64,000 nucleotides of DNA, from contig JAYFNX010000015.1 in assembly GCA_034933245.1 (NCBI GenBank), positions 6,127 through 70,126 of the forward strand, in the 5' to 3' direction. The position numbers and the translations under genes are program-made. The stretch comes from Candidatus Pelethousia sp. (GTDB taxonomy: Bacteria > Bacillota > Clostridia > Christensenellales > CAG-138). Each line of letters opens with the position of its first letter. Within the stretch, counting starts at the first letter, position 1. Below are positions 32,025 through 50,194 of this stretch, one piece after another. The notes beneath the pieces are model-generated. The model saw nothing but the letters and a program-made list of their open reading frames with translations, did not search any database and was not told where the DNA came from.

Positions 32025-32060
32025 AAGAATTGCGTGCGAGCAAGCCCGCACGCAATTCTT
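32025..32060 (-). terminator. stem-loop between mglB and mglA (partial terminator or mRNA stabiliser)
   Basis: AAGAATTGCGTGCG / CGCACGCAATTCTT. Confidence 0.65.
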
Positions 32061-32076
32061 TTGTTCCAGCGTTTGG

Positions 32077-33357: not shown

Positions 33358-33386
33358 ATCATAGCACACATCTGAATCCTTTGCAA
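33358..33386 (-). promoter_or_regulatory. sigma-A promoter of the mgl operon; candidate operator at 33324-33335
   Basis: Minus strand TTGCAA-17-TATGAT with extended TG; downstream near-palindrome TGTGAATTTACA. Confidence 0.65.
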
Positions 33387-35732: not shown

Positions 35733-35914
35733 TGCTCGCTCTCCTTTTACCAATACTCATGCACTGTTTACGACGCATTCGTATGGTTTTCCTTCATCAT
35801 AGCAGTAATATATCTTTATTATAACCTTTTAGCGCACAAATGCACGCCAATCCATCCTGGTTTTCTCTTTCAGGCAACATGTATCGTGCCAAGTTTATCT
35901 TTTTTATTGCTTGA

Positions 35915-35957
35915 GAAAACGAAAGGGGATATGCGCAAAGTCGCGCATATCCCTTCG
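35915..35957 (-). terminator. terminator closing the DUF917/Opp operon
   Basis: GGGATATGCGC / GCGCATATCCC hairpin followed by a T-rich tract on the minus strand. Confidence 0.75.
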
Positions 35958-35968
35958 CTCTTTTCTAA

Positions 35969-37111
35969 TCACATGCCGAGAATCTGCTCCGCCGGCACGT
36001 ATGGCGTATCGAAGCCGAAAGCCTTGGGGCTGAGCACGAACAGGCCGCGCTGGCTGCGGAACACATCCCGCGCCTTCATGGCGATGACCGTTACATCCAT
36101 ACCTTCTTGGATTTTGTTGTTCGTATAGGCTTCACCGGTCTTGGTATCGATCACCTGCAGCATGTCGGGGCTCGTAATGAATACCTTGCCATTCTTCCAG
36201 CTCATGTGGTTCTCATTCTTGAACCAAATAGCAAACTCTTCGCCCGCAAATTTACCTTCACCGGTAATGGTATGGGTTCCCCAGTAGTAACCGATCTTAT
36301 CCCACCATTCCTTCTTGGTAACCTTCCCACGGAAAACGATCCAGCCGCCCACGGTGTCGATAGCCGCCTGAGCAGGGTCTCGCCCTTCTTCCACGGCCTT
36401 GCGCATCGCCCGCCCCACTTTGAAGCAATCGCTCAGCGTGCCATGCATCAGGGTATCATTCATTTCCTTTACGGAAAAGCAGAAGCCCGCCTGCGCGCAC
36501 TTGCTGTAACCGGCTGCGGCAATCATCTTGCCGATGCGCTCGGTCATACGCCAGTTCACGGTGCCGGTGATGTTGGCCACATTGCCCCAACAATCAAAGG
36601 ACGTAACCGGCAATAGCTCCCGCTCAAATATGAAGGGCGTGGTCTGCTGAATTTCCGGAATCGCACGGCCGGTATAGTCGCCGTCTACCACTGCAATGCC
36701 CATTTCCGCCGCCGCGCATACGCAGGCAGCCGTGTTGGCGCCGCCCAGCTCTATGGGAACCAGCGCGGCCATCTTCTTGCCGTGCATATCCTCCAGAGCG
36801 CGGATCGCGCCCACCATGGCTTGGGTGTAATCGTGGGTCTGCGGGCCAAGGCCATAGATGGTTTCCCGTTCTTTGACGACCTCCGGATCTTCCGGCGCGA
36901 TGGATCCCATAAGGAAGGGGCAGCAGGAATAATCCCCATCGTTGAGCTGATAGGAATCCACCCATCCGATTTCGTTGCCTTTTTTTAGCTGCTTCATCAT
37001 GGCGTCTACGCCCATGGCATAATCACCGCCGCCGCCGGTGCCATAAAAGGAGCATCCATGGACAAAGTCTTCGACATCCTGCCGGTTTTTCAATGTAAAG
37101 ATCTTTTTCAC
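35969..37111 (-). CDS. DUF917 family protein (paralog 2)
   Basis: G.S.YGTGGGG, MGS, PIELGGANT, VVDGDYTGRAIPE, KNEN, TSPD. Confidence 0.88.
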   Translation of the reverse strand: MKKIFTLKNRQDVEDFVHGCSFYGTGGGGDYAMGVDAMMKQLKKGNEIGWVDSYQLNDGDYSCCPFLMGSIAPEDPEVVKERETIYGLGPQTHDYTQAMVGAIRALEDMHGKKMAALVPIELGGANTAACVCAAAEMGIAVVDGDYTGRAIPEIQQTTPFIFERELLPVTSFDCWGNVANITGTVNWRMTERIGKMIAAAGYSKCAQAGFCFSVKEMNDTLMHGTLSDCFKVGRAMRKAVEEGRDPAQAAIDTVGGWIVFRGKVTKKEWWDKIGYYWGTHTITGEGKFAGEEFAIWFKNENHMSWKNGKVFITSPDMLQVIDTKTGEAYTNNKIQEGMDVTVIAMKARDVFRSQRGLFVLSPKAFGFDTPYVPAEQILGM

Positions 37112-37140
37112 AGCTTTTTTCCCTCTTTAATATTGTTTAA

Positions 37141-38115
37141 TCAGTCATGCACCAAATGGCAGCGTATAAAGTGGCCTTCTTCCAGTTCCTTCATCTCCGG
37201 GTCATCCTTAAAGCAGCGTTCGGTGGCATATGGACAGCGCGTGTTGAAACTGCACCCTTTTGGCACGTTTACGGGGCTGGGGATCTCGCCCTTGGACTCC
37301 ACCTTATTATGGCGCACAGCCTCTTCCTCCGCGCTGATAACGGGGATAGCGGAGAGCAGCATCTGGGTATAGGGATGGCGCGGCTTAGAGAAGAACGTCT
37401 CCACCGGCGCGATCTCGGCGATTCTTCCCAGGTACATAATGGCCACCTTGGTTGCGAGGTTGCGCATAAGGCTAAGGTCATGGGTAATGAACAGATAGGA
37501 CAGGTTGCGCTGCTTCTGCAGACGCAGCAGCATATTGATGATCTTAGCCTGGACGCTTACATCCAGGGAGGATGTAGGCTCGTCCAGCACAATCATGGAA
37601 GGATCTGTGCTGATGGCGCGCGCCACTGCCAGCATCTGGCGCTCGCCGCCACCCAGGGACATGGGGTATTTATATAGGTATTCCGCGGGCAGTTCCACCG
37701 TCTCCAGCAGGCGCAGCAGTTGGCCGATCGGGTCCTTCTTATCCACCATCTTGTGGATCTGCAAAGGCAAAGTCAGAATCTGCTTGATATTTCGCTGGGG
37801 GTTCAGGGTGGTGCCGGGATCCTGGAATACCATCTGGATCTCCCGCTTCATCCATAATTCCCGATCCGCGCTCGCCATGCTGATATCGTGCCCTTTAAAT
37901 GTCATCTGCCCGGCGGTCGCATGGTACATACCGATCACGTTGTAGGCCGTGGTGCTTTTCCCGGAGCCGGACTCGCCCACCAAGCCAAGCGTTTCGCCCT
38001 CTCGGATATCAAAGTCAATGCCATCGATAGCCTTGACAAACAGCCCTTTCTGCGCGCCCTTGGTTATGGGGAAATGTTTTTTCAGTCCTTTGACGTCAAG
38101 AATGACCTCGCCCAT
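37141..38115 (-). CDS. oligopeptide/dipeptide ABC ATPase (OppF/DppF)
   Basis: GESGSGKS, DEPTSSLD, HPYT..LL, C-terminal GC.F.TRCP...C...CH. Confidence 0.93.
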   Translation of the reverse strand: MGEVILDVKGLKKHFPITKGAQKGLFVKAIDGIDFDIREGETLGLVGESGSGKSTTAYNVIGMYHATAGQMTFKGHDISMASADRELWMKREIQMVFQDPGTTLNPQRNIKQILTLPLQIHKMVDKKDPIGQLLRLLETVELPAEYLYKYPMSLGGGERQMLAVARAISTDPSMIVLDEPTSSLDVSVQAKIINMLLRLQKQRNLSYLFITHDLSLMRNLATKVAIMYLGRIAEIAPVETFFSKPRHPYTQMLLSAIPVISAEEEAVRHNKVESKGEIPSPVNVPKGCSFNTRCPYATERCFKDDPEMKELEEGHFIRCHLVHD

Positions 38116-38116
38116 A

Positions 38117-39127
38117 TCAGCACCCTCCTTCCTTTTCGTAGGCAAAACACGCTACATGATGCCCGTTGCCCGCATCATAAAACTCCGGCTTCTCCTGGAA
38201 GCAACGCTCGGTCGCCTTAGGGCAGCGCGGTGCAAAACGGCAACCCTTGGGCGGATGCAGGTAATTGGGAATACGGCCCGGAATACCTTCGGCCACGCCG
38301 CCGCCGGAAAGCCGGGGAATGCAGTGCATCAAAGCCTGGGTATAGGGATGAAGTTGTTGCTTAAACAATTCCTTGGTGGGCGCCGTTTCAACCATATTGC
38401 CGGCATACATCACGTAGATGCGGTCGCTGGTTTCTCTGGCCACTCCCAAAGAGTGGGTTATCAGGATCAGCGAGCTATGTTTGCTCTCCACCCTGTCTTT
38501 CAGGATCTTGAGGACCTGGTCCTGAATGGTAACATCCAGGTTGGTGGTGGGCTCGTCGGCAATAACCATGTCGCGTGGCGTGGCCAAGGACATAGCGATA
38601 CAGACGCGCTGCCGCATGCCGCCGCTGAGTTGAAATGGATAGCTGAGCAGAATGCGCTCAGGGTCAGGCATGGAAGTTTCCTTCAAAGCTTGGACGGCCA
38701 GTTCCTGTTGTACTTCCTTTTGGTTGGCGTCCTTCTGGCCGGAATTCCGAATAGCCTCAAACATCTGCTCTCCGATGGTGAACACAGGGTTCAGCGACAT
38801 GGTTGGGTCCTGAAAGATCATGGAAATGCCGGACCCGCGCAGGCGTTTCACTTCCGCATCCTTCATTTTCAACACATCTTTTCCCTTGAAGAAGATCTCG
38901 CCGCCGGAAATGCGGCTATTGTCGGCCAGTATGCGCAGGATGGACTTGACCGTGGTGGTCTTTCCGCAGCCCGTTTCACCCACGATGGCTACCTTTTCTC
39001 CGGAATCCACATAGAAGTTGACGCCGTTGAGAACCTTTACCATACCGGCATAGGTTTTATATTCCACAAACAGATTGCGTATGTCTGTTACGTGATTATT
39101 GGCCTTTGTTTCGCTCAATTTCATCAC
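38117..39127 (-). CDS. oligopeptide/dipeptide ABC ATPase (OppD/DppD)
   Basis: GETGCGKT, YPFQLSGGMRQR, ADEPTT.LD, HPYT, GCRFAPRC. Confidence 0.93.
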   Translation of the reverse strand: MMKLSETKANNHVTDIRNLFVEYKTYAGMVKVLNGVNFYVDSGEKVAIVGETGCGKTTTVKSILRILADNSRISGGEIFFKGKDVLKMKDAEVKRLRGSGISMIFQDPTMSLNPVFTIGEQMFEAIRNSGQKDANQKEVQQELAVQALKETSMPDPERILLSYPFQLSGGMRQRVCIAMSLATPRDMVIADEPTTNLDVTIQDQVLKILKDRVESKHSSLILITHSLGVARETSDRIYVMYAGNMVETAPTKELFKQQLHPYTQALMHCIPRLSGGGVAEGIPGRIPNYLHPPKGCRFAPRCPKATERCFQEKPEFYDAGNGHHVACFAYEKEGGC

Positions 39128-40032
39128 TCCTTGCCAGATAACATGTCCTTCACGCCGTCGCCCATCAGGTTAAAACCAAGTACGATAACCATAATGGCCA
39201 AGGCCGGGAAAATGGAGATCCACCATTGTGTGGGCAGATACTTGGCGCCATCGGAGACCATGGTGCCCAACGCCGGTGTAGGCGGCTGTTCGCCAAGGCC
39301 TACAAAGCTTAACGTGGCGCCTGTCAAAATAACCCAGCCCATATCCAGGGTCGCTTTGGTCAAAATGGAGCCGGTGCAATTGGGCAAAATCTCCCGGAAC
39401 AGAATATGCGCCTTTGATGCCCCCATAAGCTCTGCGGACTTAATGTACATCTCGTTGCGCAACGAGGTCGCCATGCTATAGGTAAGGCGGGTATACCAAG
39501 GCCACCAGGCAACGCACATTGCCAACAAGGAGTTAAGCAACGTCGGCCGTAGGATGGAGCACACGCACAGGGCCAAGATCATGGGCGGCAAAGCCAGGAA
39601 TACGTCTGTTACGCGCATAATCATGGTAGAGAACCATTTGTTCTTCCAATAACCTGCGACCAAGCCCAAAATGCTGCCCAGGGGCACTGTGGCCACCAAA
39701 ACGCCCAGGCCCATCGTAAATGCGCCGCGATACGCGTAAAATACGCGGCTCATAATGTCGCGGCCCACGGTGTCGGTGCCCATCCAGTATGCGGCGCACG
39801 GCGCTTTGCTGGCATTCTGGAAATCCACCACCGCGCCGATATGACCGGGATACGGTGCGATCCAAGGCTGAAATATGGCGAGAATCAGCACAAATAGCAC
39901 GATGCACAGCCCAACTACGGACATTCTATTGAGGGAAAATTTATACCATAGCTTCTTTGCTTCATCCCAACGGTCGCGCTTGGGCGTAGCATTTTGCTGC
40001 GTGGGCATGAAGTTGGTTTTTTCTTCGCTCAT
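39124..40032 (-). CDS. peptide ABC permease (OppC/DppC)
   Basis: GTDTVGRD, EAA-like loop YIKSAELMGA, LSFVGLG..PP. Confidence 0.92.
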   Translation of the reverse strand: MSEEKTNFMPTQQNATPKRDRWDEAKKLWYKFSLNRMSVVGLCIVLFVLILAIFQPWIAPYPGHIGAVVDFQNASKAPCAAYWMGTDTVGRDIMSRVFYAYRGAFTMGLGVLVATVPLGSILGLVAGYWKNKWFSTMIMRVTDVFLALPPMILALCVCSILRPTLLNSLLAMCVAWWPWYTRLTYSMATSLRNEMYIKSAELMGASKAHILFREILPNCTGSILTKATLDMGWVILTGATLSFVGLGEQPPTPALGTMVSDGAKYLPTQWWISIFPALAIMVIVLGFNLMGDGVKDMLSGKE

Positions 40033-41054
40033 TCTTCGCTGCCTCCCATCAAACGCACCCGAGGATCCAGCCATGCAACGATAAGATCACTCAGAATGTT
40101 CAGTATAATAAACATAAGGCCCAGTATCATAACAACCCCGGAAATCGCGTTAATGTCCTTGTTGAGCATGGCGCTCAGGCCGTAGCGGGAAAGCCCAGGG
40201 TAATTAAACAGGTTTTCCACCAGGAATGCGTTACCGAAGATAGATGCAATATCCATGGCCATTACGGTGATTGTGGGGATCAAAGAAGGCTTGAGCAGAT
40301 ATTTGTATAAAAGGCGGTTTTCCGGCACTCCGTATGCGCGCTCCGCCAGGATATAGTCCTTCATGGAATTTTCCACCATGTTGCCGCGGGTAAGGCGGGC
40401 TGCTTGCGCCATTCCGCCAAGCATCAAAGCAATGGCGGGGAGAATAAGATGTTTAAACGCGTCCCACCAGCCTGCAAAATTTCCCGTAATCAAATAATCC
40501 ACGGTATACATACCGGTAATGGTTTTAATGGGCGCCGTCATAGACTGGGCGATACGCCCCGTGGTGGGTAAGATCGGAATTAAGTATCCAAAGAGCAGCA
40601 TAAACAGCACCGCCCAAACAAATGCCGGCGATACGATGCCTAGGTAGGAAAGCACACGGATTAGGCCATCCAGCCACTTACCTGTATACTTTGTTGCCAC
40701 AATGCCAAGCAATATGCCGCCCAGCGCCATGAAAAAGGCGGATAGCAACACAATTTCAAGCGTTGCGGGCAAATACTGCCGTACGTCCTCTATTACCGCG
40801 CGTCTTGTAAGCAGGGAGGTACCCAAATCCAGCCTTGCCGCGCCTTTAAGCCAAAGAAAATATTGCGTTACGAGCGGTTTATCCAGGTTCATCTGTTGCC
40901 GCAGCGCCTGCACGGTTTCTTCGGATACATGTGGACCCAGGGCCTGCCGTGCGGGATCGCCGGGAATAACGCGGGCTATAATGAAGACAAGAATGGAAAG
41001 CCCTATGAGAACCAGCAGATAAACGCCGAGTTTTTTCAGTATCTTCAGAGCCAT
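40029..41054 (-). CDS. peptide ABC permease (OppB/DppB)
   Basis: PGDP, LDKPL..QY, LPATLE, HLILP, DYI..RAYG, VENLF.YPG, LDPRVR. Confidence 0.92.
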   Translation of the reverse strand: MALKILKKLGVYLLVLIGLSILVFIIARVIPGDPARQALGPHVSEETVQALRQQMNLDKPLVTQYFLWLKGAARLDLGTSLLTRRAVIEDVRQYLPATLEIVLLSAFFMALGGILLGIVATKYTGKWLDGLIRVLSYLGIVSPAFVWAVLFMLLFGYLIPILPTTGRIAQSMTAPIKTITGMYTVDYLITGNFAGWWDAFKHLILPAIALMLGGMAQAARLTRGNMVENSMKDYILAERAYGVPENRLLYKYLLKPSLIPTITVMAMDIASIFGNAFLVENLFNYPGLSRYGLSAMLNKDINAISGVVMILGLMFIILNILSDLIVAWLDPRVRLMGGSEE

Positions 41055-41180
41055 TATCGATTCTCTTCCTCCTCCATACGAAAATGGGGATTGTGTGAAA
41101 AGGGACGGCCGGCCTTTTTCGGCCTAGCCGCGGCCAGCCGCCCCATTCAATACGTCAGGTCAGTAGATTGTAGGGAAGGA

Positions 41181-42866
41181 TCAGTTGGCAGCCGCCATCT
41201 TCATGTCGCGGCAATAGATACCGAAGCCCATGGGCATGAAGTAATCTGTGCCGCTCTCGGTGGCACTCATAGCATCCCATTCGAGATAGCTTGTCTGCAC
41301 TGCGCGCTTTTCGATCCAGTTGAAGCCCCAAATGGTCGGGCACAAATCATAAATGTACTTCTGAATCTCGGCGTACTTCTCAAAACGGGCCTTATCGTCT
41401 ACGGTGGCCAGTGCATCTTCGATCATGGCATCCAGCGTATCGTCCTGCAACCATTCCATCTGTTCCCAAGAACCGCAGGAGGAAGAATGGTAACGGGTGC
41501 GCAGCATGCCGCCAGCCTCAAAGTAAGGCGCCGCAAAGTTAACGAAGGAGATTTGCGGGGTGGTTTCCACGCTCTGTGCATCGGTGATCATGGAGCCGAA
41601 CGGCTTCTTGGTGATAACCAGGTTGATGCCCAACTCGGAAAGGTTGGACTGCAACAGCAGGGAGATCTTTTCCTGTTCAGGCACTTCGGCGCACCAGCTC
41701 AAGTTCAGGGTGATGGGCTGCCCGGCATACTTGGATTGCGCAAGTTCTTCCTTCGCCTTGTTTATATCCCGGCTGTAAGCGGGGATGCTGCTATCAAAGC
41801 CGGGGAGCACGACGGAAACGGGGCCGTGGCTCTCCAGCGCGCCAGGATAGATCTGGGTGCGCAGCGTCTCATAATCGAAGCAATACGCGATCGCCTTGCG
41901 CAGATGGATGTCATCGGTGAATTCCGCCTTGGTGTTGAGCATCATGTTAAAGGTGTTGCTGTTGCACCACTTGGAGATATCTACGCCTTCCATTTCATCC
42001 ATGGTGTTGTAATTCTCAAGGGGCTGCAACTCATCGGTGATTTCCAATTCCTTATTGGCCATGGCGGTACGTACGGCAACGGCGTCGGTCATGTTGGAAA
42101 GCTTAAAATATTGCGGCGCACCTTCTTCCCATCCCAGGAAGTAATCTTCGAAACGGTCGGCCAGCAGGTATTCGTCCAGTTTGAACTCAACGGTCTTGTA
42201 CGGGCCGGAGCCGGCGTCGTTGGTCAGCATCCAGGTCTTGCCGTAGTCGCCCTTGTCGCCGTAGGTGCTGTCGGTAAGGTCATAATGCGATTCTACCAGC
42301 GCCTGTTCCACAACCATGAAGCGAATCAGGGAGTAGATGAAGGGGCCGAAGGAATGGTCCAGCTCAAATACCACATGGGTATCATCCGCAGCATAACAGT
42401 TTTTTACCACGCCGGTATATAGATAGGCATAGCCCTCGCCGATCTCCAGCATACGGTTCATGCTGTAAGCGACGTCGCTGGCTTTCAGCATGTTGCCACT
42501 ATGGAACTTCACGTCGTCCCGGATGGTAAAGGTATAAACCAGGGAGTCGTCGGAAACGGTCCACTCGGTTGCGAGGTGGGGTTCCACGGTACCATCGGCC
42601 TTGGGGAATACCAACGCGTCGTAGATATTGGCCTGGGCTGTGGAGCAGGAGTAGCTGGAACCTACAGCGGGGTCATAATAAGTTGGCCAGTCTTCGGTGG
42701 TGCGGACGATGGTTGCTCCTTCTTCCACAACGGCGGTGGAAGCACCGCCTGCTGCCGTGTTGCCTGCATTTCCACCATCGGGAGCAGCAGCCTGGGGCGC
42801 GCAACCGAAGACGGTGGTCAGCATGGCCAAAACCAGGAGCATGCAGAATACTCGTTTTGCGTTCAT
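41181..42866 (-). CDS. family-5 ABC substrate-binding lipoprotein
   Basis: Signal ending in VFGC; DP, YD.LV, LATEW, F.IR..VKFH.G, GSGPY, LRKAI; start MNAKR after RBS GGAGG. Confidence 0.92.
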   Translation of the reverse strand: MNAKRVFCMLLVLAMLTTVFGCAPQAAAPDGGNAGNTAAGGASTAVVEEGATIVRTTEDWPTYYDPAVGSSYSCSTAQANIYDALVFPKADGTVEPHLATEWTVSDDSLVYTFTIRDDVKFHSGNMLKASDVAYSMNRMLEIGEGYAYLYTGVVKNCYAADDTHVVFELDHSFGPFIYSLIRFMVVEQALVESHYDLTDSTYGDKGDYGKTWMLTNDAGSGPYKTVEFKLDEYLLADRFEDYFLGWEEGAPQYFKLSNMTDAVAVRTAMANKELEITDELQPLENYNTMDEMEGVDISKWCNSNTFNMMLNTKAEFTDDIHLRKAIAYCFDYETLRTQIYPGALESHGPVSVVLPGFDSSIPAYSRDINKAKEELAQSKYAGQPITLNLSWCAEVPEQEKISLLLQSNLSELGINLVITKKPFGSMITDAQSVETTPQISFVNFAAPYFEAGGMLRTRYHSSSCGSWEQMEWLQDDTLDAMIEDALATVDDKARFEKYAEIQKYIYDLCPTIWGFNWIEKRAVQTSYLEWDAMSATESGTDYFMPMGFGIYCRDMKMAAAN

Positions 42867-42976
42867 TATTTTTTCCTCCTTGTTTTTATAAGTTCCTTCG
42901 CCACAAGGGCGGCAAAATCTAATCTTATCATTATCTCGCCGGAACTTGCCCGTTTCAACCGGCAAAATAAGCAAGA

Positions 42977-44098
42977 TTATTTATTCATAAGTTCGCGTAC
43001 GGGCACATGCTCGATGTCAAAACCGAAGTATTTTGGCGTAAGCAAGGTGGTGTTTTCCTGTTCGGGCTTGCACGGCAGCGCGACGAGCGCCACGTGCTGG
43101 CCCACATGGGAGAGGGGATTGGGAACGGGTTCGCCGGTGTCGGTATCGATGGCCGCGATGATATCGGGGCTGGTGACGTAGGGCTTGCCATTCTTCCACA
43201 CCACGTGGTTCTCATTCTTAAACCAGTATTTCAGTTCGTCCTTGCCGCAATCCACGGTAACAGTGCCCCAGTAATACCCTTCCGCGTCATAATCGTCCTT
43301 GGCGGTGATGGTGCCGCGGCCCAGTTCATAGCCGTTGCGCGCGGCCATGAGCTCCTTCACGGGGTCCTTCCCCGCTTCCTTGGCTTCGCGCAGCAGCCTA
43401 CCGGCCGCGTAGCACTCGCTAAGGGTGCCGGCGATGACGGTTTCCCGGGTTTTCTTGCCATCCAGCGCCATACCTGCCTGCCCGGCCAAACCATAGCCCG
43501 CCACGCTGATCAGCTTGCCGATGTGCTCCACGGTGCGGGGATTGATGGCATATTTAATGATGCACTCGTTTCCCCATTCGTCCACGGACGCTACGGGCAG
43601 AATGCAATGTCCATGATAATTAAAGGTGATCTGCACAATCTCGGGAATCGCGCGGCCGGTATAATCGCCGTCGACGGTAACCATGCCAAGCTGGGCGGCA
43701 GCCGCTATAGCGCCTGCTGTGTTGGCTCCCGCCAATTCAATAGGCACAACCACGTTGAACTTTTTGCCCGAATATTCTTCCAGTGCCACGATGGCCTTCG
43801 CCAACCTGTCGCCCTCGGGGTTGACGCTGGTCTTATCGGTCATCTCATAAGAAGTCATTTCCTTGATGGTATCCTCGTTATGGGGCGCGATGGATCCCAT
43901 GAGGAAAGGGCACACGCTCAGCGCGTCATCGGGAATCTCGTTTACATCCACCCAACCGATCTCACGGCCGGCCTTCAGCTCCCCCATCAGGGATTTTTTA
44001 CCGTTAGCGGGCAATCCGCCGCCACCTGTAGCGAAGAACGTGCAGCCACGCACAAAGTCTTCCACTTGCTGTTCGGTTTTGAGTTTCATCGTAGGCAT
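42977..44098 (-). CDS. DUF917 family protein (paralog 1)
   Basis: GCTFFATGGGG, PIELAGANT, VDGDYTGRAIPE, FKNEN, TSPD; clearly homologous to 35969-37111. Confidence 0.88.
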   Translation of the reverse strand: MPTMKLKTEQQVEDFVRGCTFFATGGGGLPANGKKSLMGELKAGREIGWVDVNEIPDDALSVCPFLMGSIAPHNEDTIKEMTSYEMTDKTSVNPEGDRLAKAIVALEEYSGKKFNVVVPIELAGANTAGAIAAAAQLGMVTVDGDYTGRAIPEIVQITFNYHGHCILPVASVDEWGNECIIKYAINPRTVEHIGKLISVAGYGLAGQAGMALDGKKTRETVIAGTLSECYAAGRLLREAKEAGKDPVKELMAARNGYELGRGTITAKDDYDAEGYYWGTVTVDCGKDELKYWFKNENHVVWKNGKPYVTSPDIIAAIDTDTGEPVPNPLSHVGQHVALVALPCKPEQENTTLLTPKYFGFDIEHVPVRELMNK

Positions 44099-44143
44099 AT
44101 GATTGTTCCTCCTTGACGTTTTTGATGAAATGCATAAAAATCG

Positions 44144-44977
44144 TTAATCAAGATCTTTGCAGAGTTCCCGCGGGTCCCCTTGAATTGCCGACGATGCGAG
44201 AAGATCCACTCGGTAGCCCGGCTGTCGGCGCATTTGTGTTGCTTTGTCCAAATCCACATCGCATATGCCCAGCATCTGCTCGTCATATCCCAATTGCAGC
44301 ATAGGATGGCCATCCGGGCCGCATATCTGGCTTTTGCCAAACAAGTGCAGCTTCCCAAAGGTTCCCACATGGTTCACCGCAATGGTATACACCTGGTTTT
44401 CCAGCGCCCGCGAGCCGACATTCAGGTGCCATGCATGCTCATCTTCTATACGCCAGGCCGCTGGAATAAAGATAATCTCCGCGCCGGCCATGCAAAGATA
44501 CCGCGCTGTTTCGGGGAAGCCGATATCATAACAGATCAGGATTCCAATGCGGCCAAAGTCCGTGTCAAAAACGGGAAAAGCATCGCCTTTTGTAAAAAAG
44601 TTGTCTTCGGCGCCAAAGGAAAATGCCTTGTGGTATTCGCCCACGCATTGTCCCTTGCGATCATAAAGATGCGCGGCATTGTAATAGCGGCCGTTTTCCG
44701 GTACGCACAAGCCCGCGACAATGTAAATCTTGCCTGCTGCGGCCGCCTTTCCCATGGCCGCATCTATGCGCTTGGTCCATTCATCGCCTATGCTGTGAAC
44801 CTTTTCGCCCAGCATCTGTAACTGATAACCGGAGAAACACAGCTCCGGTAGCAGCACCACATCCGCGCCCGCGGCGGCTGCCTGCGCCACCAGGGATTCG
44901 GCATTTTTAATGTTTGCTTCCACATCCCCCAGCTTCGCCCCAAACTGCGCCAGCGCAATACGTGCCTTTCGCCCCAT
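44144..44977 (-). CDS. carbon-nitrogen hydrolase (nitrilase superfamily)
   Basis: Intact E-K-C triad: LPEL, YHK, ICYD.GFPE; RALENQ. Confidence 0.92.
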   Translation of the reverse strand: MGRKARIALAQFGAKLGDVEANIKNAESLVAQAAAAGADVVLLPELCFSGYQLQMLGEKVHSIGDEWTKRIDAAMGKAAAAGKIYIVAGLCVPENGRYYNAAHLYDRKGQCVGEYHKAFSFGAEDNFFTKGDAFPVFDTDFGRIGILICYDIGFPETARYLCMAGAEIIFIPAAWRIEDEHAWHLNVGSRALENQVYTIAVNHVGTFGKLHLFGKSQICGPDGHPMLQLGYDEQMLGICDVDLDKATQMRRQPGYRVDLLASSAIQGDPRELCKDLD

Positions 44978-44979
44978 TC

Positions 44980-45900
44980 TTATTTCCTCCGCAGGTGCTT
45001 CATATCGCCGTAGAGCGTCTGTAAGCGTGTGAACTCTTGGGGATTATAAAATGCACAATTGCCTTGGGTAAAGTCCTTCGCCGTTTCCACGGCAAACCTC
45101 GCCGCCAGTTCCACATCCACAAGCTGGGTAGCGCCGGTAGCGCACCCGGCCACGGGAATCTCGGATGTAATCGCCACACCTACCACCGGCGCATCCGTCA
45201 TAACGGAAGGCTGCATAATGCTGTTAAGGTGATAGATTCCGTTTCCGTACGGCGTAATATCCTGCGTGGTGATGGGCAGCACAACCGGTAGACGGCCTGT
45301 CACCCTGGTCATAATATCCAGCATGCCTTCGCTAACCCTCAAAATATAGCCCTCTTTTACGGTGGGCGTTATGGCAAAGCCGCGGCTGCAAAGGATGCGG
45401 TTTCCCTTTGTCGCATCGATGGAAAGAAGCGCATCCACGGGATATGCGGTCTCCAAGCGGCATACGTCCGCATCGCTTACAGAAGACCCCATCAGCCGAA
45501 CAGGCTCATGCGGCACGGTGGGCGCGTTGGGGCAGATATGCGTGCATAGCATAACATCGCCCGAAAGCTGGTCGCCATTGGTAAGCATGTCCGCCAATTT
45601 CAGGCCAGCCGCCAACACGCAAAGCGCGCCATCGCCATCGGAAACGAAACCCGTGATATCGGGCCGCGCGCCCAAGCCGCCCAGGCGGCCCACAATGCCG
45701 AGTGTCGGCGCGTATCCGCCATTCTTTTTTCCGTTTACGCCGGGAATCACCATGCGTAAAAAGGTCGTTTCGCCCTTTTCGCCCTGCACGTTCTGCAGCA
45801 TAACCGCGACGCCGCGCTTTGCAAACAGCTTTTGCACAGCTTCACCCGAAGCATACGCGCTGTCCAGCAAATCGTATATTTCCATACATTGGCTAAACAT
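44980..45900 (-). CDS. DUF1177 family protein
   Basis: APTLGIVGRLGG.GARP, VSDGDGA, THICP.APT.PH.P, SIDATKGNR, QDITPYGNG.YH.NS. Confidence 0.85.
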   Translation of the reverse strand: MFSQCMEIYDLLDSAYASGEAVQKLFAKRGVAVMLQNVQGEKGETTFLRMVIPGVNGKKNGGYAPTLGIVGRLGGLGARPDITGFVSDGDGALCVLAAGLKLADMLTNGDQLSGDVMLCTHICPNAPTVPHEPVRLMGSSVSDADVCRLETAYPVDALLSIDATKGNRILCSRGFAITPTVKEGYILRVSEGMLDIMTRVTGRLPVVLPITTQDITPYGNGIYHLNSIMQPSVMTDAPVVGVAITSEIPVAGCATGATQLVDVELAARFAVETAKDFTQGNCAFYNPQEFTRLQTLYGDMKHLRRK

Positions 45901-45963
45901 TTCTTTCTCCTTTATCCTTGCTATACAGAATTACATCCATAGCCTATAATATTGAAGGGATTA

Positions 45964-45979
45964 ATGTGCGTTTGCACGT
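45964..45979. promoter_or_regulatory. candidate PucR-family operator upstream of the DUF1177 operon
   Basis: ATGTGC-GTTT-GCACGT palindrome; a second copy is at 46151-46166. Confidence 0.55.
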
Positions 45980-46150
45980 TGGCTTATATTTTTTGCATGT
46001 TTGTCCTTGTTGTGCGGACAGTTTGAAAGCATATGGGGGTAAGTTTATCAGACAATATGTTTTCTCACTTTTTAATGGCAAGAGCTTGCTATATAGGACA
46101 GGGAAAATTCTATCTTTTATTTTATATGATATAGTATAATATAGAGGGTA

Positions 46151-46166
46151 ATGTGCATGCGCACAT
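46151..46166. promoter_or_regulatory. candidate PucR-family autoregulatory operator
   Basis: ATGTGC-ATGC-GCACAT just downstream of TATAAT (46135-46140) of the regulator gene. Confidence 0.55.
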
Positions 46167-46235
46167 AAACTTATGGGGCAAAGTGTTAAAACGCACCCGT
46201 CCTTATGGCAAATTCGGTTTTGAAAGGTGTTTGCA

Positions 46236-47840
46236 ATGCAGCTTACTGTACGCGAAGCAATGAAGTTAAAGCCCTTATGCAACGGCGAGGTCATAGCCGG
46301 CATCAGCGGACTGGACCGGGTGATTGGCTGCGTATCCGCCATGGAGGTATTGGATTTTACCGAATTTCTGGAACCAGACATGCTTGCGATTTCCAGTCTG
46401 TATGCCATTGCCAACGATTTTGACAGCCAGCTTTCCTTTGTGCGCATGATGAACGATTATCACGCAAGCGCGCTGATGCTGTTCAACGTTGGGCCTGTTA
46501 TGCCCTACATATCCCAGGATTTGATTGCGCTGTGCGACGAGCTGGCGTTTCCGCTCATCAATATGCCGCCGCATATTTCCTATTATGATGTGTTCAAGGC
46601 CGTCCTTGACCAGTTGCTGGAGCGCCAGGTGCACAAGCTGCAGGATTCCATCCAGCTTTACGAAGCCTATATGAACCAGTTGCTGGATGTGGACGAACAC
46701 TATTCCTCGCTGCTTGATACACTGAGCGAGACGGTAGGCAGCAATGTTCTTTTTTTCGACCACAACCAGAAATTCGTTTACCATACCCGGCCGGACGCGC
46801 AGACCCCTTCCGCGCAAACGATACAGCTTATTCAAGGCCATCTGGTTGGATTGATCGACCGGCCCAAGGACATGCTGTTTGTGGAGATCGCAGGCGTTTC
46901 TTACCTGTTTATGCCGGTTAGCCATAAATACACCTACTATGGCGCCCTGGTTATTGAAAATATTGAAAATCCCATGTCCGATCTGGCCAAGCTGGCCATA
47001 TCCCAAACCTGCCGGGCATTGTGCATCACCATATTCAACAGCGAGCGCCAGGATGAATATCGCAAGCGTATGCGCCGCGAGTATCTGCGCGATATACTCA
47101 CCGGCAATTTCGGCGACAAAGGGCTGATTATATCCCAAGGGCAGGCGCTGGATTTCAACATCACCGATGTGACGGGCGTGCTCGTTATTCACCCCGCCAA
47201 AACAGGCGCCCATGAGGAGACGGAGGATTTGTTGAAAAGCTGCGCCGTGTACGCCGAGCGCCTTACGGGCGATAGCATCATCACCATCCTGGGAGATGCC
47301 GGCGATGTGGTTATCCTTTCCACCAATAAAAACAGGCAGGATCTCCTGCAGGCGGGCAAGGGCTTGGCCGCGCTGCTGGAAAGCAGCGAGATACAGGCGA
47401 CCGTGGGCATCGGCCCCGTTTGTGAGGATGTGCAGATGATCCCCGATTGCTATAAAAAGGCGCAGAACGCCATGCGCATTTCGGACAAGTTGTTCTGCCA
47501 TCCGCATCACATAGTAGCCTGCTATGACGATCTGAAGGTTTTTGATCTGCTGCTGGAAAGCGTGGAACGCCAGAAGGCCAAAACGATTGTGGACGAGCTG
47601 TTCCGGCCTGTGGATACATATGACAGCACCTACAACGGCCAGTTGGCGGATACTTTTTTCGCTTTGCTTGTCAACAGCGTATCCACTTCGCAGGTATCGC
47701 AGGAGATGTATCTGCATAAAAACACGGTGCTGCAGCGAAAAAATAAGATCGCCGGCTTTTACAGCGACGATCCTTTTTCCAGCTCCAACCGTCTTCGGTT
47801 TGAACTGGGATATATCCTAAAAAAAATATTTGACCTATAG
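46236..47840 (+). CDS. PucR/CdaR-family transcriptional regulator
   Basis: N-terminal PucR domain (VIAG.SGLDR.I..V..ME), GIG..., YD..YNG.L.DT, C-terminal HTH MYLHKNTV.QR..KI. Confidence 0.9.
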   Translation: MQLTVREAMKLKPLCNGEVIAGISGLDRVIGCVSAMEVLDFTEFLEPDMLAISSLYAIANDFDSQLSFVRMMNDYHASALMLFNVGPVMPYISQDLIALCDELAFPLINMPPHISYYDVFKAVLDQLLERQVHKLQDSIQLYEAYMNQLLDVDEHYSSLLDTLSETVGSNVLFFDHNQKFVYHTRPDAQTPSAQTIQLIQGHLVGLIDRPKDMLFVEIAGVSYLFMPVSHKYTYYGALVIENIENPMSDLAKLAISQTCRALCITIFNSERQDEYRKRMRREYLRDILTGNFGDKGLIISQGQALDFNITDVTGVLVIHPAKTGAHEETEDLLKSCAVYAERLTGDSIITILGDAGDVVILSTNKNRQDLLQAGKGLAALLESSEIQATVGIGPVCEDVQMIPDCYKKAQNAMRISDKLFCHPHHIVACYDDLKVFDLLLESVERQKAKTIVDELFRPVDTYDSTYNGQLADTFFALLVNSVSTSQVSQEMYLHKNTVLQRKNKIAGFYSDDPFSSSNRLRFELGYILKKIFDL

Positions 47841-47959
47841 GCGCGCAAAAACCGCCCGGTATTTTTCCGAATGTGTCGTTTTGAGCCCGTTGCATCCCCG
47901 TTGCAACCGCTCGGTGTTGTAATGAGGCCGGTCAGGGCAAGGGAATCCCCGTCCTGCGG

Positions 47960-49234
47960 CTATTCTCTTGCCATGATGGTTACCATGGTGGTAAATACCG
48001 TATCCGTATAGTGCATGCTAAGATCATCCCCATCATGGGTTAGGATTCTGCGCAGGCTGACCAAGCCCAAACCGCCATCTTTTTTCCGGGAGAGCAGACG
48101 CTCTCCTTTTTTGCTTACCACCCCGTCAAAGGAATTTTCCATCAGCAACATCAAACGGTCTACCGTGAAGCGAGCGGTGATATCTATGAATCTGTTATCA
48201 TAAATGCGATCACAAGCTTCCATCGCGTTTTGCATCATGTTGCCGATTACCACACATAAGGTGAGATCGTCTATGGGGATGGTCTGGCGAATATCCAAAT
48301 CCACACGCAGCGTAATGCCGCGTTTTTCACACAGCACCCGTATGCGGTTCATGATCTCGTTGATGGCCTGGTTTTCGCACATGGTAATGACGGATACGTC
48401 GTATCGCTTTACAAGCTGCCCAAGGTATCGGTCCACTTCGGTCTTGTCCTGCATGCCCAGAACCGCCTGCACATGCAAGGTAAAATCATGCCGCAGGACA
48501 CGCATGTTGTCTATGCTCTCTAAAAGCTGGGTGTAGTGCTGGCGCTGTTCCGTTACAAGCTGTTTTGCAAAATGCAATTCATCCTCGGCATGATGTCTTT
48601 CGGATATATCCACCAGATTTTTCAGGAGCAATACGTATACGACCGCCGTGGTCATCATGAACAGCAGATAAAACGTGGCATTGGAATCCGCCTTTACCAT
48701 ATAATTGGAAGGGCGAAGGCCTATTAGAAAAACAATCAGGATGATTGCGGGATAAATTAGCAGAAGCGGAGGGAGATTATCCTCCAAAGCCGAAAACAGG
48801 CGCTCCAACGTATCTTGCAAAAACGTACGCAGCACGATGAAAAATCCTACCAACAGGAACAGATAGACCAATACGCAAATTTCATGCTGCCGCACAACAT
48901 CCTGCGGGCTCAGCAGCATGGAGAAGACGGTGGAAAACGTAAAGAATACGATGGAAAACATCCACCCGGAAAGGTATATAAACAGTTTTTTTGCGAGAGA
49001 GCCCTCAAAAAGCGGCGCCAGAATCAAGAATATTAGGATGGCGAACACATGGTTCACAAGCTCCTCATTAAGCCCATAACTTTGCACCCCAACCATGATG
49101 AGCCAAATATACACAAAGAGCGCGCCCACCAGTTCCACGCTGCCCCGGCGGATCTTCAAGCACAGGCATAATAAAAGAGCCCGTACGATAAGGTTGAACA
49201 AGGTAAGACATAATTCACAGGCGGCAATACTCAT
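47960..49234 (-). CDS. GHKL (AgrC/VirS-type) membrane histidine kinase
   Basis: About 6 TM helices, LRHD, GN.MQNAMEA, GGLGLVS. Confidence 0.88.
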   Translation of the reverse strand: MSIAACELCLTLFNLIVRALLLCLCLKIRRGSVELVGALFVYIWLIMVGVQSYGLNEELVNHVFAILIFLILAPLFEGSLAKKLFIYLSGWMFSIVFFTFSTVFSMLLSPQDVVRQHEICVLVYLFLLVGFFIVLRTFLQDTLERLFSALEDNLPPLLLIYPAIILIVFLIGLRPSNYMVKADSNATFYLLFMMTTAVVYVLLLKNLVDISERHHAEDELHFAKQLVTEQRQHYTQLLESIDNMRVLRHDFTLHVQAVLGMQDKTEVDRYLGQLVKRYDVSVITMCENQAINEIMNRIRVLCEKRGITLRVDLDIRQTIPIDDLTLCVVIGNMMQNAMEACDRIYDNRFIDITARFTVDRLMLLMENSFDGVVSKKGERLLSRKKDGGLGLVSLRRILTHDGDDLSMHYTDTVFTTMVTIMARE

Positions 49235-49237
49235 CTA

Positions 49238-49963: not shown

Positions 49964-50194
49964 AAGAATACTATAGGGCAAAAGCCGCATCTTTGCCAGT
50001 GGCAATCCCCTCCAAGCGGCATATTTTAGCGCATAGCGGCATTATTTACACTTTCAATGGCGCCGGGCTTCCCGGTATAATTGTTATATAAGGTTCAATC
50101 ATTCTGTGAATTTATTAGCATCTGTAATCCTATATTCTATTTTTTGCACGTGCGGACGTGTTATTATAATTACTATATTTAGGAGGGACATCAC

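Follow-up and report, generated by a model that had tools for sequence, protein, structure and literature searches.

A predicted PucR-controlled operon with paired DUF917 genes and DUF1177, possibly serving the catabolism of cyclic amides derived from amino acids

Introduction

Classical hyu operons comprise a permease, a hydantoin racemase, a hydantoinase and an N-carbamoylase. The named members of the DUF917 family catalyze a hydrolytic sulfur exchange at a thiohydantoin ring. The family is now called 'S-Me-THD-like' in Pfam, with domains S-Me-THD_N and S-Me-THD_C, and NCBIfam contains equivalog models within it for a thiohydantoin and an S-methyl thiohydantoin desulfurase (NF058529, NF058532), in agreement with the reassignment of one member that the sequence-only reading had mentioned.

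A further type, the non-CDPS gene clusters with a cyclodipeptide oxidase (CDO), has been described bioinformatically only (Andreas & Giessen, Nat Commun 2024, PMC11055893). According to that paper, PF00881 and PF19585 correspond to the subunits CDOA and CDOB, cyclic dipeptides are the substrates of all characterized CDOs, and the clusters, from anaerobes and archaea, contain DUF917, ABC dipeptide/oligopeptide transporters and peptidase-type genes. Diketopiperazines are stated to withstand ordinary peptidases; microbes cleave them in an inducible manner, and this cleavage has been associated with strains that have cyclic-amidase activity (PMC3852281).

Organization of the operon

We analyzed a stretch of 64,000 nt from Candidatus Pelethousia sp., hereafter the window. 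The ten genes proposed by the sequence-only reading were all found, from the ORF list, Pfam and NCBIfam, at the coordinates that it gave, and the layout it described, with nine minus-strand genes closed by a terminator and divergent from a PucR gene, was borne out by the ORFs, both databases and the hairpin:

46227..47840, plus strand: PucR-family regulator (Pfam PucR, GGDEF_2, HTH_30)
46149..46164, no strand: candidate operator 2, inverted repeat
45962..45977, no strand: candidate operator 1, inverted repeat
44980..45900, minus strand: DUF1177 protein, 306 aa (PF06675, 410 bits)
44144..44977, minus strand: CN_hydrolase of the nitrilase superfamily, 277 aa (Pfam, 160 bits)
42977..44098, minus strand: DUF917a, 373 aa, S-Me-THD-like (PF06032 and PF20906)
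41181..42866 (ORF to 42974), minus strand: SBP, family-5 solute-binding lipoprotein (Pfam SBP_bac_5)
41107..41124, minus strand: small G+C hairpin in the SBP–permease intergenic region (terminator-like match, 5 pairs, all G-C)
40029..41054, minus strand: permease B, DppB/NikB type (Pfam BPD_transp_1 and BPD_transp_1_N)
39124..40074, minus strand: permease C, DppC/NikC/DdpC type (Pfam BPD_transp_1 and OppC_N; NCBIfam)
38117..39127, minus strand: ABC ATPase, OppD/DppD type (Pfam ABC_tran and oligo_HPY)
37141..38145, minus strand: ABC ATPase, OppF/DppF type (Pfam ABC_tran and oligo_HPY)
35969..37111, minus strand: DUF917b, 380 aa (Pfam; BLASTP against DUF917a)
35926..35953, minus strand: intrinsic terminator, bidirectional hairpin (terminator scan)

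The gene layout predicts that the nine minus-strand genes are a genuine operon, with an order conserved elsewhere; from the ORF coordinates, neighboring genes overlap by up to 46 nt or are separated by up to 126 nt. The operon is closed, 16 nt past the DUF917b stop codon, by a strong terminator hairpin of 12 pairs (7 of them G-C) with a loop of 4 and a T-rich tail, CTTTCGTTTT. The hairpin upstream of the permease genes is possibly an attenuator or an mRNA-stability element. Translation of the SBP likely starts with the Met at 42866, followed by a lipoprotein-type signal ending in VFGC, and the in-frame ATG at 46236, preceded by GAAAGG, is the more plausible start for PucR. The host of the operon is a spore-forming anaerobe.

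Related loci and linkage to cyclodipeptide oxidase

The complete gene order of the operon, with PucR divergent, recurs in L063, L077, L078 and L080, whose DUF917a is 60–83 % identical, and also in three loci truncated at contig ends (L064, L068 and L023); the arrangement therefore exceeds chance. L064 duplicates L063, and we counted five other distinct window-type loci (L063, L077, L078, L080 and L023). Genes for a CDO and an M29-like protein occur in three of these five (L023, L077 and L078) and do not appear in the L068 fragment, so the copy in the window is a minimal form, and it is doubtful that the system is complete, as had been claimed. In six sister operons (L067 and L069–L073; DUF917a 77–80 % identical), a two-subunit CDO and a racemase stand in place of DUF1177 and the C-N hydrolase: nitroreductase and PF19585 genes directly follow DUF917a, and an Asp/Glu/hydantoin racemase gene follows that for the SBP.

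L023, L077 and L078 join a CDO to the full gene set of the window operon. With the non-CDPS CDO clusters the operon shares DUF917 genes, an ABC transporter of dipeptide/oligopeptide type and peptidase-type genes; it differs from them by the absence of CDOA/CDOB, racemase and AroM and by the presence of DUF1177 and the C-N hydrolase instead. Without CDOA/CDOB, it was outside the reach of the CDOB-seeded search in PMC11055893; DUF1177 has no occurrence in the main text of that paper, nor do its 11 searchable supplementary files contain PF06675, DUF1177 or PF00795. The pathway, which the sequence-only reading called unassigned, is so as to function, although the cluster type had already been described there bioinformatically. 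The window locus contains no gene for a CDO, a racemase, AroM or an M29-like protein, and therefore the link to diketopiperazines rests on the sister loci. In the whole genome, a tblastn panel did not detect CDOA, DUF6092 or AroM; a Pfam search for DUF6092 was also negative, a weak result since its control matched in no genome.

The operon belongs to a broader group of DUF917 loci that include an importer and, in many cases, PucR. After dereplication and a length threshold of 8 kb, 37 DUF917 loci were compared, of which 30 contain an importer (Opp-type, NCS1 or OPT) and 22 contain PucR. The sample is biased, as its members were retrieved for their resemblance to DUF1177 or DUF917a, and related genomes in it do not count as independent. 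These counts fit the earlier, broad suggestion of regulated import and hydrolysis of a modified peptide or N-heterocycle, without its thiohydantoin option (see below).

Importer

The closest solved relatives of the SBP are Lmo0135 (E 1e-28), HbpA, NikA and DppA. The nearest NCBIfam models for the importer are DppF, OppD, NikB/C, DdpC and GsiC/D, and Opp2B, NikB and DppB for permease B, with none reaching its cut-off; by sequence, we place the importer in the dipeptide/nickel/glutathione size class. It could be an ordinary di/oligopeptide or nickel importer, cotranscribed with unrelated housekeeping hydrolases. That NikA and DppA are among the solved relatives agrees with this, as do NikA being the best NCBIfam match of the SBP and the presence just downstream of a gene for a PepV-like M20 dipeptidase (Pfam, NCBIfam). 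However, the SBP falls well short of the cut-offs for NikA (122.6 bits versus 393) and DppA (69.8 versus 1005), the M20 gene lies beyond the operon terminator and is absent downstream of the operon in L063 and L080, enzymes and transporter keep their order as DUF917a identity falls from 83 to 60 %, and an Opp-type importer adjoins DUF917 in 21 of the 37 loci. We thus consider ordinary uptake improbable.

The DUF917 pair

DUF917b is a paralog of DUF917a (45 % identity, BLASTP). In the tree they fall in separate clades, with 12 rows in the a-clade and 11 in the b-clade (SH-aLRT 100 for each), and every orthologous locus contains one a and one b copy. The AF2 model of DUF917a (pLDDT 95.1) has 2o3i as its sole structural relative (Z 38.5), and the structure comparison returned no characterized relative of the fold; the designation of DUF917a as a putative ring-opening or ring-modifying hydrolase is thus an analogy.

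Desulfuration of a thiohydantoin, as in the catabolism of ergothioneine or S-methyl-ergothioneine, was considered and rejected as very improbable. The window DUF917 shares both Pfam domains with the characterized desulfurases and matches both NCBIfam models weakly, but with scores (56.5 bits versus 450, and 59.1 versus 440) of around one eighth of the cut-offs. Additionally, neither of the partner enzymes of ergothioneine breakdown, a urocanase-like hydratase and an aromatic ammonia-lyase, was found in the 98.8 %-complete genome, whereas the controls matched in 5–6 reference genomes, and the neighboring genes are of peptide type.

C-N hydrolase and DUF1177

The catalytic triad of the C-N hydrolase, noted before as intact, is invariant in all seven aligned orthologs (E45, K117 and C149). 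Among solved structures it is closest to PH0642 (E 9e-34) and a Pyrococcus abyssi nitrilase entry, and its PDB and NCBIfam matches include N-carbamoyl-D-amino-acid hydrolases, beta-ureidopropionase and N-carbamoylputrescine amidase. No NCBIfam equivalog cut-off was reached (archaeal 'nitrilase', 136 bits versus 500; AguB, 119 versus 410), and we propose that the enzyme is an amidase or a decarbamoylase. What it would do to an unmodified cyclic dipeptide is not evident, which speaks against the model preferred below; it would better suit a hydantoin/N-carbamoyl route.

Pfam, hhalign and PDB profile searches detected no resemblance of DUF1177 to M20 or M28 proteins, at the level of either sequence or profile. 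Nevertheless, its single-domain AF2 model (pLDDT 86.4) predicts the catalytic-domain fold of clan MH metallopeptidases and amidohydrolases (M20/M28/M42). In VIA-align it matched M20 and M42 enzymes over 221–232 residues (Z 18.1–17.4, rmsd 3.0–3.5), the top structures being 2q43 (Z 18.1), 5ds0 (Z 18.0) and 1ysj (Z 17.6), with 229–232 residues at 3.2–3.5 Å; Z values of around 18 were obtained with M20 aminoacylases and M42/M28 aminopeptidases, 15.7 with allantoate amidohydrolase and 15.3 with a carbamoylase-family amidase. A structure atlas placed it at TM 0.62 to an M20/M28 cluster. DUF1177 lacks the dimerization or lid domain of clan MH metallohydrolases, and among its invariant residues are a Cys and a number of His and Asp residues, which may or may not correspond to the H-D-E-D/E-H metal ligands. 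We propose from the model that it is a putative hydrolase of a linear product.

DUF1177 was found in 12 of 400 genomes of the class sample and DUF917 in 30 of 401. They co-occur in 10 of the 12 DUF1177-positive genomes, and of the 11 other DUF1177 loci, 7 have a DUF917 gene no more than 7.5 kb away. DUF1177 also occurs fused to DUF917 (1 cluster), AroM (6 clusters), a PucR-type HTH (2 clusters) and an Opp-type ATPase (1 cluster).

The window operon would share with hyu operons the logic of import, ring opening and C-N hydrolysis, with its nitrilase-superfamily hydrolase in the place of the D-carbamoylase; DUF917 replaces the hydantoinase, of either amidohydrolase-superfamily or HyuA/HyuB type. 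It is possible, if doubtful, that the operon is an analog of the hydantoinase process, in which DUF917a/b would convert a 5-substituted hydantoin or ureide, possibly an N-terminally carbamoylated, cyclized peptide, into an amino acid with an N-carbamoyl group. The C-N hydrolase would then act as N-carbamoylase, releasing NH3 and CO2, and DUF1177 would be another enzyme of this kind, an M20-like carbamoylase, or an aminoacylase. Thiohydantoin rings are indeed the target of the sole DUF917 enzymes with a name, and the carbamoylase-type matches of the C-N hydrolase and the DUF1177 fold are in line with such a process, as is the classical association of PucR regulators with purine and ureide catabolism (reference 52 in PMC11055893, as cited there). 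Likewise, an NCS1 permease adjoins DUF917 in 5 of the 37 loci, and L017 has the textbook, hyu-like order of NCS1 permease, C-N hydrolase, hydantoin-family racemase, DUF917 and DUF1177. However, the window importer is of peptide (Opp/Dpp) type and not NCS1, its locus has no racemase, the C-N hydrolase is below every carbamoylase cut-off and present in just 6 of the 37 loci, and the closest sister operons contain a CDO and no ureide enzyme.

Divergent control region

The regulator scored 82.4 bits for PucR, 42.6 for GGDEF_2 and 26.8 for HTH_30 (cut-off 27), and a PucR gene also adjoins the orthologs of the operon in L063, L078 and L080. Both candidate operators contain the same inverted repeat, TAATGTGC-N4-GCAC. 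This pattern, with 12 specified bases, occurs four times in the 2.5-Mb genome, both strands counted, two of them in this intergenic region; by our own estimate, chance would yield ca. 0.3 per genome. In the direction of the operon, operator 1 precedes a TATTAT hexamer by 10 nt and the DUF1177 start by ca. 60 nt. In both L078 and L080, similar 6-4-6 repeats are followed by a −10-like hexamer, and L063 has only a partial, direct-repeat version. The repeats are putative PucR sites.

Proposed function

Our preferred explanation, to which we assign a probability of about 0.45, is a PucR-controlled operon for the catabolism of a cyclic amide that derives from amino acids, is about the size of a dipeptide and resists peptidases, 2,5-diketopiperazines being the likeliest class and 5-substituted hydantoins a close alternative. 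We infer that the compound would enter the cell through the Dpp/Nik-type ABC transporter with its lipoprotein SBP; the DUF917a/DUF917b pair would hydrolytically attack a ring carbonyl, opening or modifying the ring; the C-N hydrolase would release ammonia from a terminal amide or carbamoyl group; and DUF1177 would cut the remaining peptide or N-acyl bond, yielding amino acids for fermentation. PucR may sense the substrate or an intermediate, and act at the two inverted repeats.

Alternatively, the operon could have a non-catabolic function in processing or recycling a peptide-derived signal or secondary metabolite, such as a modified diketopiperazine, or DUF1177 could be a non-catalytic, ligand-binding partner. 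CDOs are known, according to PMC11055893, only from biosynthetic clusters, the fusions of DUF1177 to a PucR-type HTH are as expected for a sensor domain, and any canonical clan MH metal ligands in DUF1177 are conjectural. However, an SBP-dependent importer, PucR and three hydrolase-type enzymes are a signature of uptake and breakdown, and none of the annotated loci contains a synthase (CDPS or NRPS), making this function unlikely.

Three traits are newly recognized here: the conserved a/b pairing of DUF917, the predicted peptidase-clan fold of DUF1177, devoid of sequence signal, and the fusions of DUF1177 to DUF917, AroM and PucR-type HTH domains.

Organization of the operon and its surroundings

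ORF listing and Pfam searches located every gene that the sequence-only reading had named in this region, as follows:

35969–37111, minus strand: DUF917b
37141–38145, minus strand: second ABC ATPase with oligo_HPY domain
38117–39127, minus strand: first ABC ATPase with oligo_HPY domain
39124–40074, minus strand: second BPD_transp_1 permease
40029–41054, minus strand: first BPD_transp_1 permease
41181–42974 (ORF), minus strand: family-5 solute-binding lipoprotein (SBP)
42977–44098, minus strand: DUF917a
44144–44977, minus strand: C-N hydrolase (Pfam, 160 bits)
44980–45900, minus strand: DUF1177
46227–47840, plus strand: PucR-family regulator

By ORF coordinates, the spacing among the nine operon genes ranges from a 46-nt overlap to a 126-nt gap. 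Translation of the SBP most likely begins with the Met encoded at 42866, the first residue of a lipoprotein-type signal; for the regulator, the likeliest start codon is the ATG at 46236, preceded by the ribosome binding site GAAAGG. The closing terminator proposed earlier corresponds to a 12-pair hairpin with a T-rich tail, situated 16 nt past the last stop codon. Immediately downstream of it lies a further gene:

34365–35753, minus strand: PepV/Sapep-type M20 dipeptidase (TIGR01887, 394 bits, above cut-off)

This gene was rejected as part of the operon, because it is beyond the terminator and is not conserved downstream of the operon in two related loci, L063 and L080; its product may assist in practice.

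Next to the dipeptidase gene there is an AT-rich stretch of ca. 1 kb (33400–34360; GC 0.42, vs 0.51–0.58 nearby) without any ORF longer than 72 aa, tRNA or Rfam match, and a plus-strand ORF of 501 aa (31870–33375) with an odd, Gly/Leu/His-rich composition and no Pfam match, which is probably a shadow of the minus-strand gene at 32077–33147. On the other side, adjoining the PucR gene, a minus-strand GHKL histidine kinase and LytTR response regulator face a plus-strand sodium:solute symporter (47960–51649), forming a separate sensing and uptake unit. An Rfam search over 33000–49000 gave no match and no tRNA was found in the window. The presence elsewhere in the window of spore-germination genes, YabP, an indolepyruvate-type ferredoxin oxidoreductase and an iron alcohol dehydrogenase is consistent with a spore-forming anaerobic Firmicute.

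Regulator and candidate operators

The product of the divergent gene has the architecture of the PucR/CdaR family, with an N-terminal PucR domain (82.4 bits) and a GGDEF-like middle domain (42.6 bits), both above the Pfam cut-off, and a C-terminal HTH_30 domain with 26.8 bits against a cut-off of 27 (E 4.6e-6). In the 326-nt divergent region, the inverted repeat TAATGTGC-N4-GCAC occurs twice, at 45962–45977 and 46149–46164, each copy being followed ca. 10 nt downstream, in the direction of the operon, by a TATTAT hexamer. Similar 6-4-6 repeats precede a -10-like hexamer in the related loci L078 and L080, and L063 has a partial version of the repeat. Both repeats are presented as candidate PucR operators, which could serve activation or repression alike. 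The 2.5-Mb genome contains four matches to the pattern, vs ca. 0.3 expected by our estimate; the other two are inside an ORF on contig C11 and in an unrelated intergenic spacer upstream of the window, so that no regulon is claimed.

Importer and C-N hydrolase

The five transport genes correspond to an Opp/Dpp-type (PepT) importer, since the family-5 SBP, the two BPD_transp_1 permeases and the two oligo_HPY ATPases all scored above their Pfam cut-offs. Of the NikABCDE nickel importer, the equivalog cut-offs of NikA, NikB and NikC in NCBIfam were missed (NikA, 122.6 vs 393 bits; NikB, 209 vs 447; NikC, 228.8 vs 358), and the nickel-import reading was rejected. That the operon merely serves the uptake of ordinary peptides or nickel is, taken together, improbable.

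The C-N hydrolase belongs to the nitrilase superfamily, and the Glu-Lys-Cys triad described from the sequence is indeed intact, with E45, K117 and C149 invariant in all seven sequences of the orthologue alignment. Among PDB proteins, its match to D-carbamoylases (E ca. 6e-11) is weaker than that to PH0642 (E 9e-34). A hydantoin/N-carbamoyl route would give this enzyme a natural role, and would also fit the only known DUF917 chemistry and the gene order of L017, a DUF1177 locus with an NCS1 permease. The marks of a classical hyu operon were looked for with Pfam, and neither a hydantoinase (amidohydrolase-superfamily or HyuA/HyuB) nor an NCS1 permease was found at the locus; a tblastn search of the genome with one NCS1 query, from locus L051, gave no match. 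We consider this route possible, on the doubtful side.

DUF1177 is predicted to adopt a peptidase-clan fold

DUF1177 has more than 8000 homologues, none of them functionally named, and those from Pyrococcus and Thermococcus are ca. 60 % identical to it; a literature search on the family found no relevant paper. The model of the protein (pLDDT 86.4, pTM 0.90) matches the catalytic domain of clan MH, including M20 aminoacylases (2q43, Z 18.1; 1ysj, 17.6; 6slf, 17.4), the M42 TET aminopeptidase 5ds0 (Z 18.0) and M28 aminopeptidases, with allantoate amidohydrolase, a carbamoylase-family amidase and bacterial glutaminyl cyclase at Z 15–16. All 50 fold matches listed (Z 18.1 to 15) are of clan MH or M17 type; Foldseek ranked M17 aminopeptidases first (TM 0.55), and the ESM Atlas gave a TM of 0.62 to an M20/M28 cluster. 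The model therefore indicates a clan-MH (M20/M28/M42) catalytic-domain fold. No sequence or profile link to peptidases appeared with Pfam, with hhalign against one M28 and one M20 protein, or with phmmer and hmmsearch against the PDB.

The co-catalytic site of clan MH consists of the metal ligands His-Asp-Glu-Asp/Glu-His and a general-base Glu. In DUF1177, residues D88, D115, C123, D214 and H224 are invariant and H121, H131, D162, E183 and C253 near-invariant; judging by topology, these ten could form a site equivalent to these ligands. E272 is likewise invariant or nearly so. From the topology and the known clan motifs, the SDGDG segment before helix 90–107 would be the bridging-Asp motif, an Arg of the invariant GRLGG loop would take the place of the first His ligand, and His-x-Cys that of the Glu-Glu pair. 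With such replacements, the site would be remodeled and perhaps mononuclear.

A search for fusions, restricted to longer proteins, returned 12 matches, six of which were analyzed with Pfam and the others through precomputed Pfam lists. Six clusters join DUF1177 to a following AroM domain (residues 41–308 and 341–559 in P0245, the one checked), one cluster with three member sequences joins DUF917 to DUF1177 (P0253, 668 aa), and two clusters from different sources carry a PucR-type GGDEF_2/HTH_30 region followed by a C-terminal DUF1177 (P0254 and P0256, both of 733 aa). An FAD-binding oxidoreductase and an Opp-type ATPase are each fused to DUF1177 in one cluster, and P0255 has other, unrelated domains. 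Erroneous gene calling may account for some of these fusions, but the architectures that recur support a functional link of DUF1177 to DUF917, AroM, the regulator and the importer, and P0254 and P0256 hint that DUF1177 can act as a ligand-sensing domain.

The DUF917 pair

DUF917a shares 45 % identity with DUF917b, and proteins resembling DUF917a at 51–57 % identity occur in named species. The predicted fold of DUF917a (pLDDT 95.1) has a single structural match, the structural-genomics entry 2o3i (Foldseek E 4e-21, VIA-align Z 38.5); no other relative exceeded Z 5.1, the value for CbiG/CobE, which is too weak to use. Invariant residues include the GxGGGG loop, E121, D143, R149, N295, E296 and D312. 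A complex prediction for DUF917a and DUF1177 scored 0.00 against a mark of 0.32, which has no bearing either way.

The sequence-only reading had mentioned a DUF917 member acting as an S-methyl-thiohydantoin desulfurase and counted thiohydantoins among the substrates. This option lost ground: DUF917b and DUF917a fell well below the (S-methyl) thiohydantoin desulfurase cut-offs of NCBIfam (56.5 vs 450 and 59.1 vs 440 bits, respectively). In the ergothioneine pathway, the partner enzymes are ergothionase, with an aromatic ammonia-lyase fold, and thiourocanate hydratase, with a urocanase fold. Neither PF00221 nor PF01175 was found in the organism's own genome (98.8 % complete), whereas the controls matched in five and six reference genomes, and the ergothioneine reading was rejected on the scores and the missing partners. 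A literature search on thiohydantoin desulfurase found nothing relevant, and we regard thiohydantoin desulfuration as highly improbable.

A quick maximum-likelihood tree of 74 DUF917 sequences, with SH-aLRT support only and leaving out 11 loci that duplicate others and ORFs of less than 330 residues, separated an a-clade (12 rows) and a b-clade (11 rows), each with support 100. Each orthologous locus has one a and one b gene, whether it carries DUF1177 and the C-N hydrolase or a cyclodipeptide oxidase (CDO) and a racemase, and both locus types are interleaved inside the a-clade, suggesting that PucR, the importer and the DUF917 a/b pair make up a constant core around which accessory enzymes were exchanged. 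In a racemase/AroM module, DUF917 genes also adjoin DUF1177, and these fall into a very distant clade of their own (7 rows, support 100, branch 1.86), so that the association of DUF1177 with DUF917 holds in two far-apart DUF917 branches.

Conservation and distribution of the operon

Scanning metagenome contigs with DUF917a returned 48 loci, whose gene order was compared by tblastn with the window proteins and by a seed-based census. The order DUF1177, C-N hydrolase, DUF917a, SBP, permeases B and C, ATPases D and F and DUF917b, with PucR divergent, is complete in L063, L077, L078 and L080 (DUF917a identity of 83, 72, 61 and 60 %, respectively), and is also seen in the contig-end fragments L064 (a duplicate of L063), L068 and L023 (from genome G349). 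The operon genes therefore recur together in other genomes, as the earlier reading demanded, and the arrangement exceeds chance. L077, L078 and L023 have additional genes, for M29-like proteins and a nitroreductase, at their ends or separating DUF917a from the SBP; in L077 and L023 there is also DUF6092.

In a sample of the class, DUF1177 occurred in 12 of 400 genomes and DUF917 in 30 of 401, and none of 15 genomes from the same order had either; remnants of recombinase, integrase or phage genes lie beside L078, L077 and L063. These results indicate a patchy distribution, and the operon was probably acquired horizontally.

Sister operons and cyclodipeptide oxidase

In six sister loci (L067 and L069–L073), many of them labeled as gut metagenome contigs, DUF917a is 77–80 % identical to that of the window, and the order is divergent PucR, DUF917b, DUF917a, nitroreductase, DUF6092, permeases and ATPases, SBP and racemase. 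The main text of PMC11055893, the only paper found in a literature search on PF06032, defines CDO as CDOA (PF00881) plus CDOB (PF19585), the latter appearing as DUF6092 in the Pfam copy used here. It describes every characterized CDO as dehydrogenating cyclic dipeptides, and most CDO operons as lacking a cyclodipeptide synthase. These synthase-less operons, which include those of anaerobes and Thermococcus, are enriched in hydantoin-family racemases, DUF917, AroM, ABC dipeptide/oligopeptide and OPT transporters, and peptidases (PMC11055893). The CDOA and CDOB pair is present in L023, L077 and L067–L073, and a CDOA-type gene alone in L078.

The window operon is thus a relative of this cluster type. 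It has DUF917, in two copies (138–176 bits per domain), and the peptide-type transporter and peptidase genes are represented by the five-component Opp/Dpp-type importer, the peptidase-clan fold predicted for DUF1177 and the adjacent M20 dipeptidase. In contrast, Pfam found neither the CDOA and CDOB pair in the operon nor a racemase (PF01177) or AroM (PF07302) at the locus. A tblastn panel found no CDOA, DUF6092 or AroM in the organism's genome; a DUF6092 profile search of it was also blank, although weak, since its control matched in no genome. Five PF01177 genes occur elsewhere in this genome, and the strong members of the Asp/Glu/hydantoin-racemase family are:

C65:2590–3204
C43:13118–13768
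C18:56604–57248
C7:38188–38784

The CDO-associated cluster type is already in print as a bioinformatic observation (PMC11055893). DUF1177 is not mentioned in the main text of that paper, and PF06675, DUF1177 and PF00795 do not occur in its 11 searchable supplementary files, a count that excludes one picture-only PDF. New here are the minimal variant with DUF1177 and C-N hydrolase and without oxidase and racemases, the conserved DUF917 a/b pair, the clan-MH fold modeled for DUF1177 and the DUF1177 fusions.

The wider DUF917 and DUF1177 locus family

When 125 ORFs surrounding ten other DUF1177 loci were annotated with Pfam, a recurrent module emerged, comprising PucR, importer, Asp/Glu/hydantoin-family racemase, DUF917, DUF1177, AroM and an M29-like protein, with M20, M24, M18 or M28 peptidases frequently close by. 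The importer is of the OPT (L018, L020, L021 and L022), NCS1 (L017), Opp-type ABC (L004) or Tct (L024) type; L004 was the only locus obtained from a contig scan of the genomes with DUF1177. DUF917 lies at most 7.5 kb from DUF1177 in seven of 11 loci outside the window, being absent from L004, L016, L019 and L025, and is present in 10 of 12 DUF1177-positive genomes, related genomes not being independent; the association for which the earlier reading proposed a neighborhood analysis is thus recurrent.

Relatives of DUF917a neighbor Opp-type ABC importers or NCS1 permeases, plus PucR genes. We also took a census of 37 dereplicated loci of at least 8 kb, by blastp against seed proteins from the Pfam-annotated ORFs; the loci had been retrieved through their similarity to DUF1177 or DUF917a, and the figures characterize this sample rather than nature. 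In 30 loci DUF917 has an Opp-type, NCS1 or OPT importer nearby, and PucR (22), a racemase (19), an M29-like gene (16), a CDOA-type nitroreductase (12), DUF1177 (11) and a C-N hydrolase (6) follow; at least two DUF917 genes occur in 22.

A family of ca. 347 aa, without Pfam match at 1e-5, adjoins DUF917 in ten loci (L055, L056, L057, L059, L077, L078, L090, L100, L107 and L020); its 33 % identity (E 1e-21) with the M29-like members of the DUF1177 module suggests a divergent M29-like branch. Genome G157 has six DUF917 matches and, on contig C4, a DUF917 island (L053/L054) in which 30 kb hold four full-length DUF917 genes plus the terminal part of another, among NCS1, CDO, racemase, M20 and sugar-type ABC genes.

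Proposed role and significance

Across loci, the constant core is a regulator from a family linked to nitrogen-compound catabolism, an importer for small substrates and the DUF917 pair, with peptidase-fold proteins, racemases, CDO and C-N hydrolase as interchangeable partners. This combination suggests that a small cyclic amide of peptide origin is taken up and hydrolyzed; a non-catabolic role appears unlikely. Diketopiperazines are the favored substrate class, with a probability of roughly 45 %, because cyclic dipeptides are the only known substrates of an enzyme present in the closest sister operons, the importer is of dipeptide type and the partners are exopeptidase-like. The main weakness of the diketopiperazine reading is that a plain cyclic dipeptide gives the C-N hydrolase no clear role.

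Cyclic dipeptides and hydantoin-like rings are plentiful in protein-rich, heated or fermenting habitats. They resist ordinary peptidases, and knowledge of how they are degraded is scant (PMC3852281). Our literature search found no paper, later ones than PMC3852281 included, naming genes for diketopiperazine cleavage. A bolder and rather unlikely proposition is that DUF917a/b and DUF1177 are the long-missing 2,5-diketopiperazine hydrolase system, the operon family being the first genetically defined route for cyclic-dipeptide import and cleavage, in anaerobic peptide fermenters and hyperthermophilic archaea. If so, DUF1177 would be a new branch of the M20/M28 clan, unrecognizable by sequence, with a remodeled His/Cys/Asp active site.

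DUF917 and DUF1177 are large families that are central to a widely spread, importer-linked operon type. Being compact, with nine genes and neither oxidase nor racemase, the operon is a good minimal set for reconstitution, in which a single binding protein can be screened for ligands and four soluble enzymes can be assayed. The identity of the substrate would annotate thousands of genes from gut, sediment and hot-spring microbes, and could yield enantioselective cyclic-amide hydrolases for biocatalysis. The operon is thus a compact, testable entry to DUF917 and DUF1177, and possibly to the microbial degradation of cyclic dipeptides.
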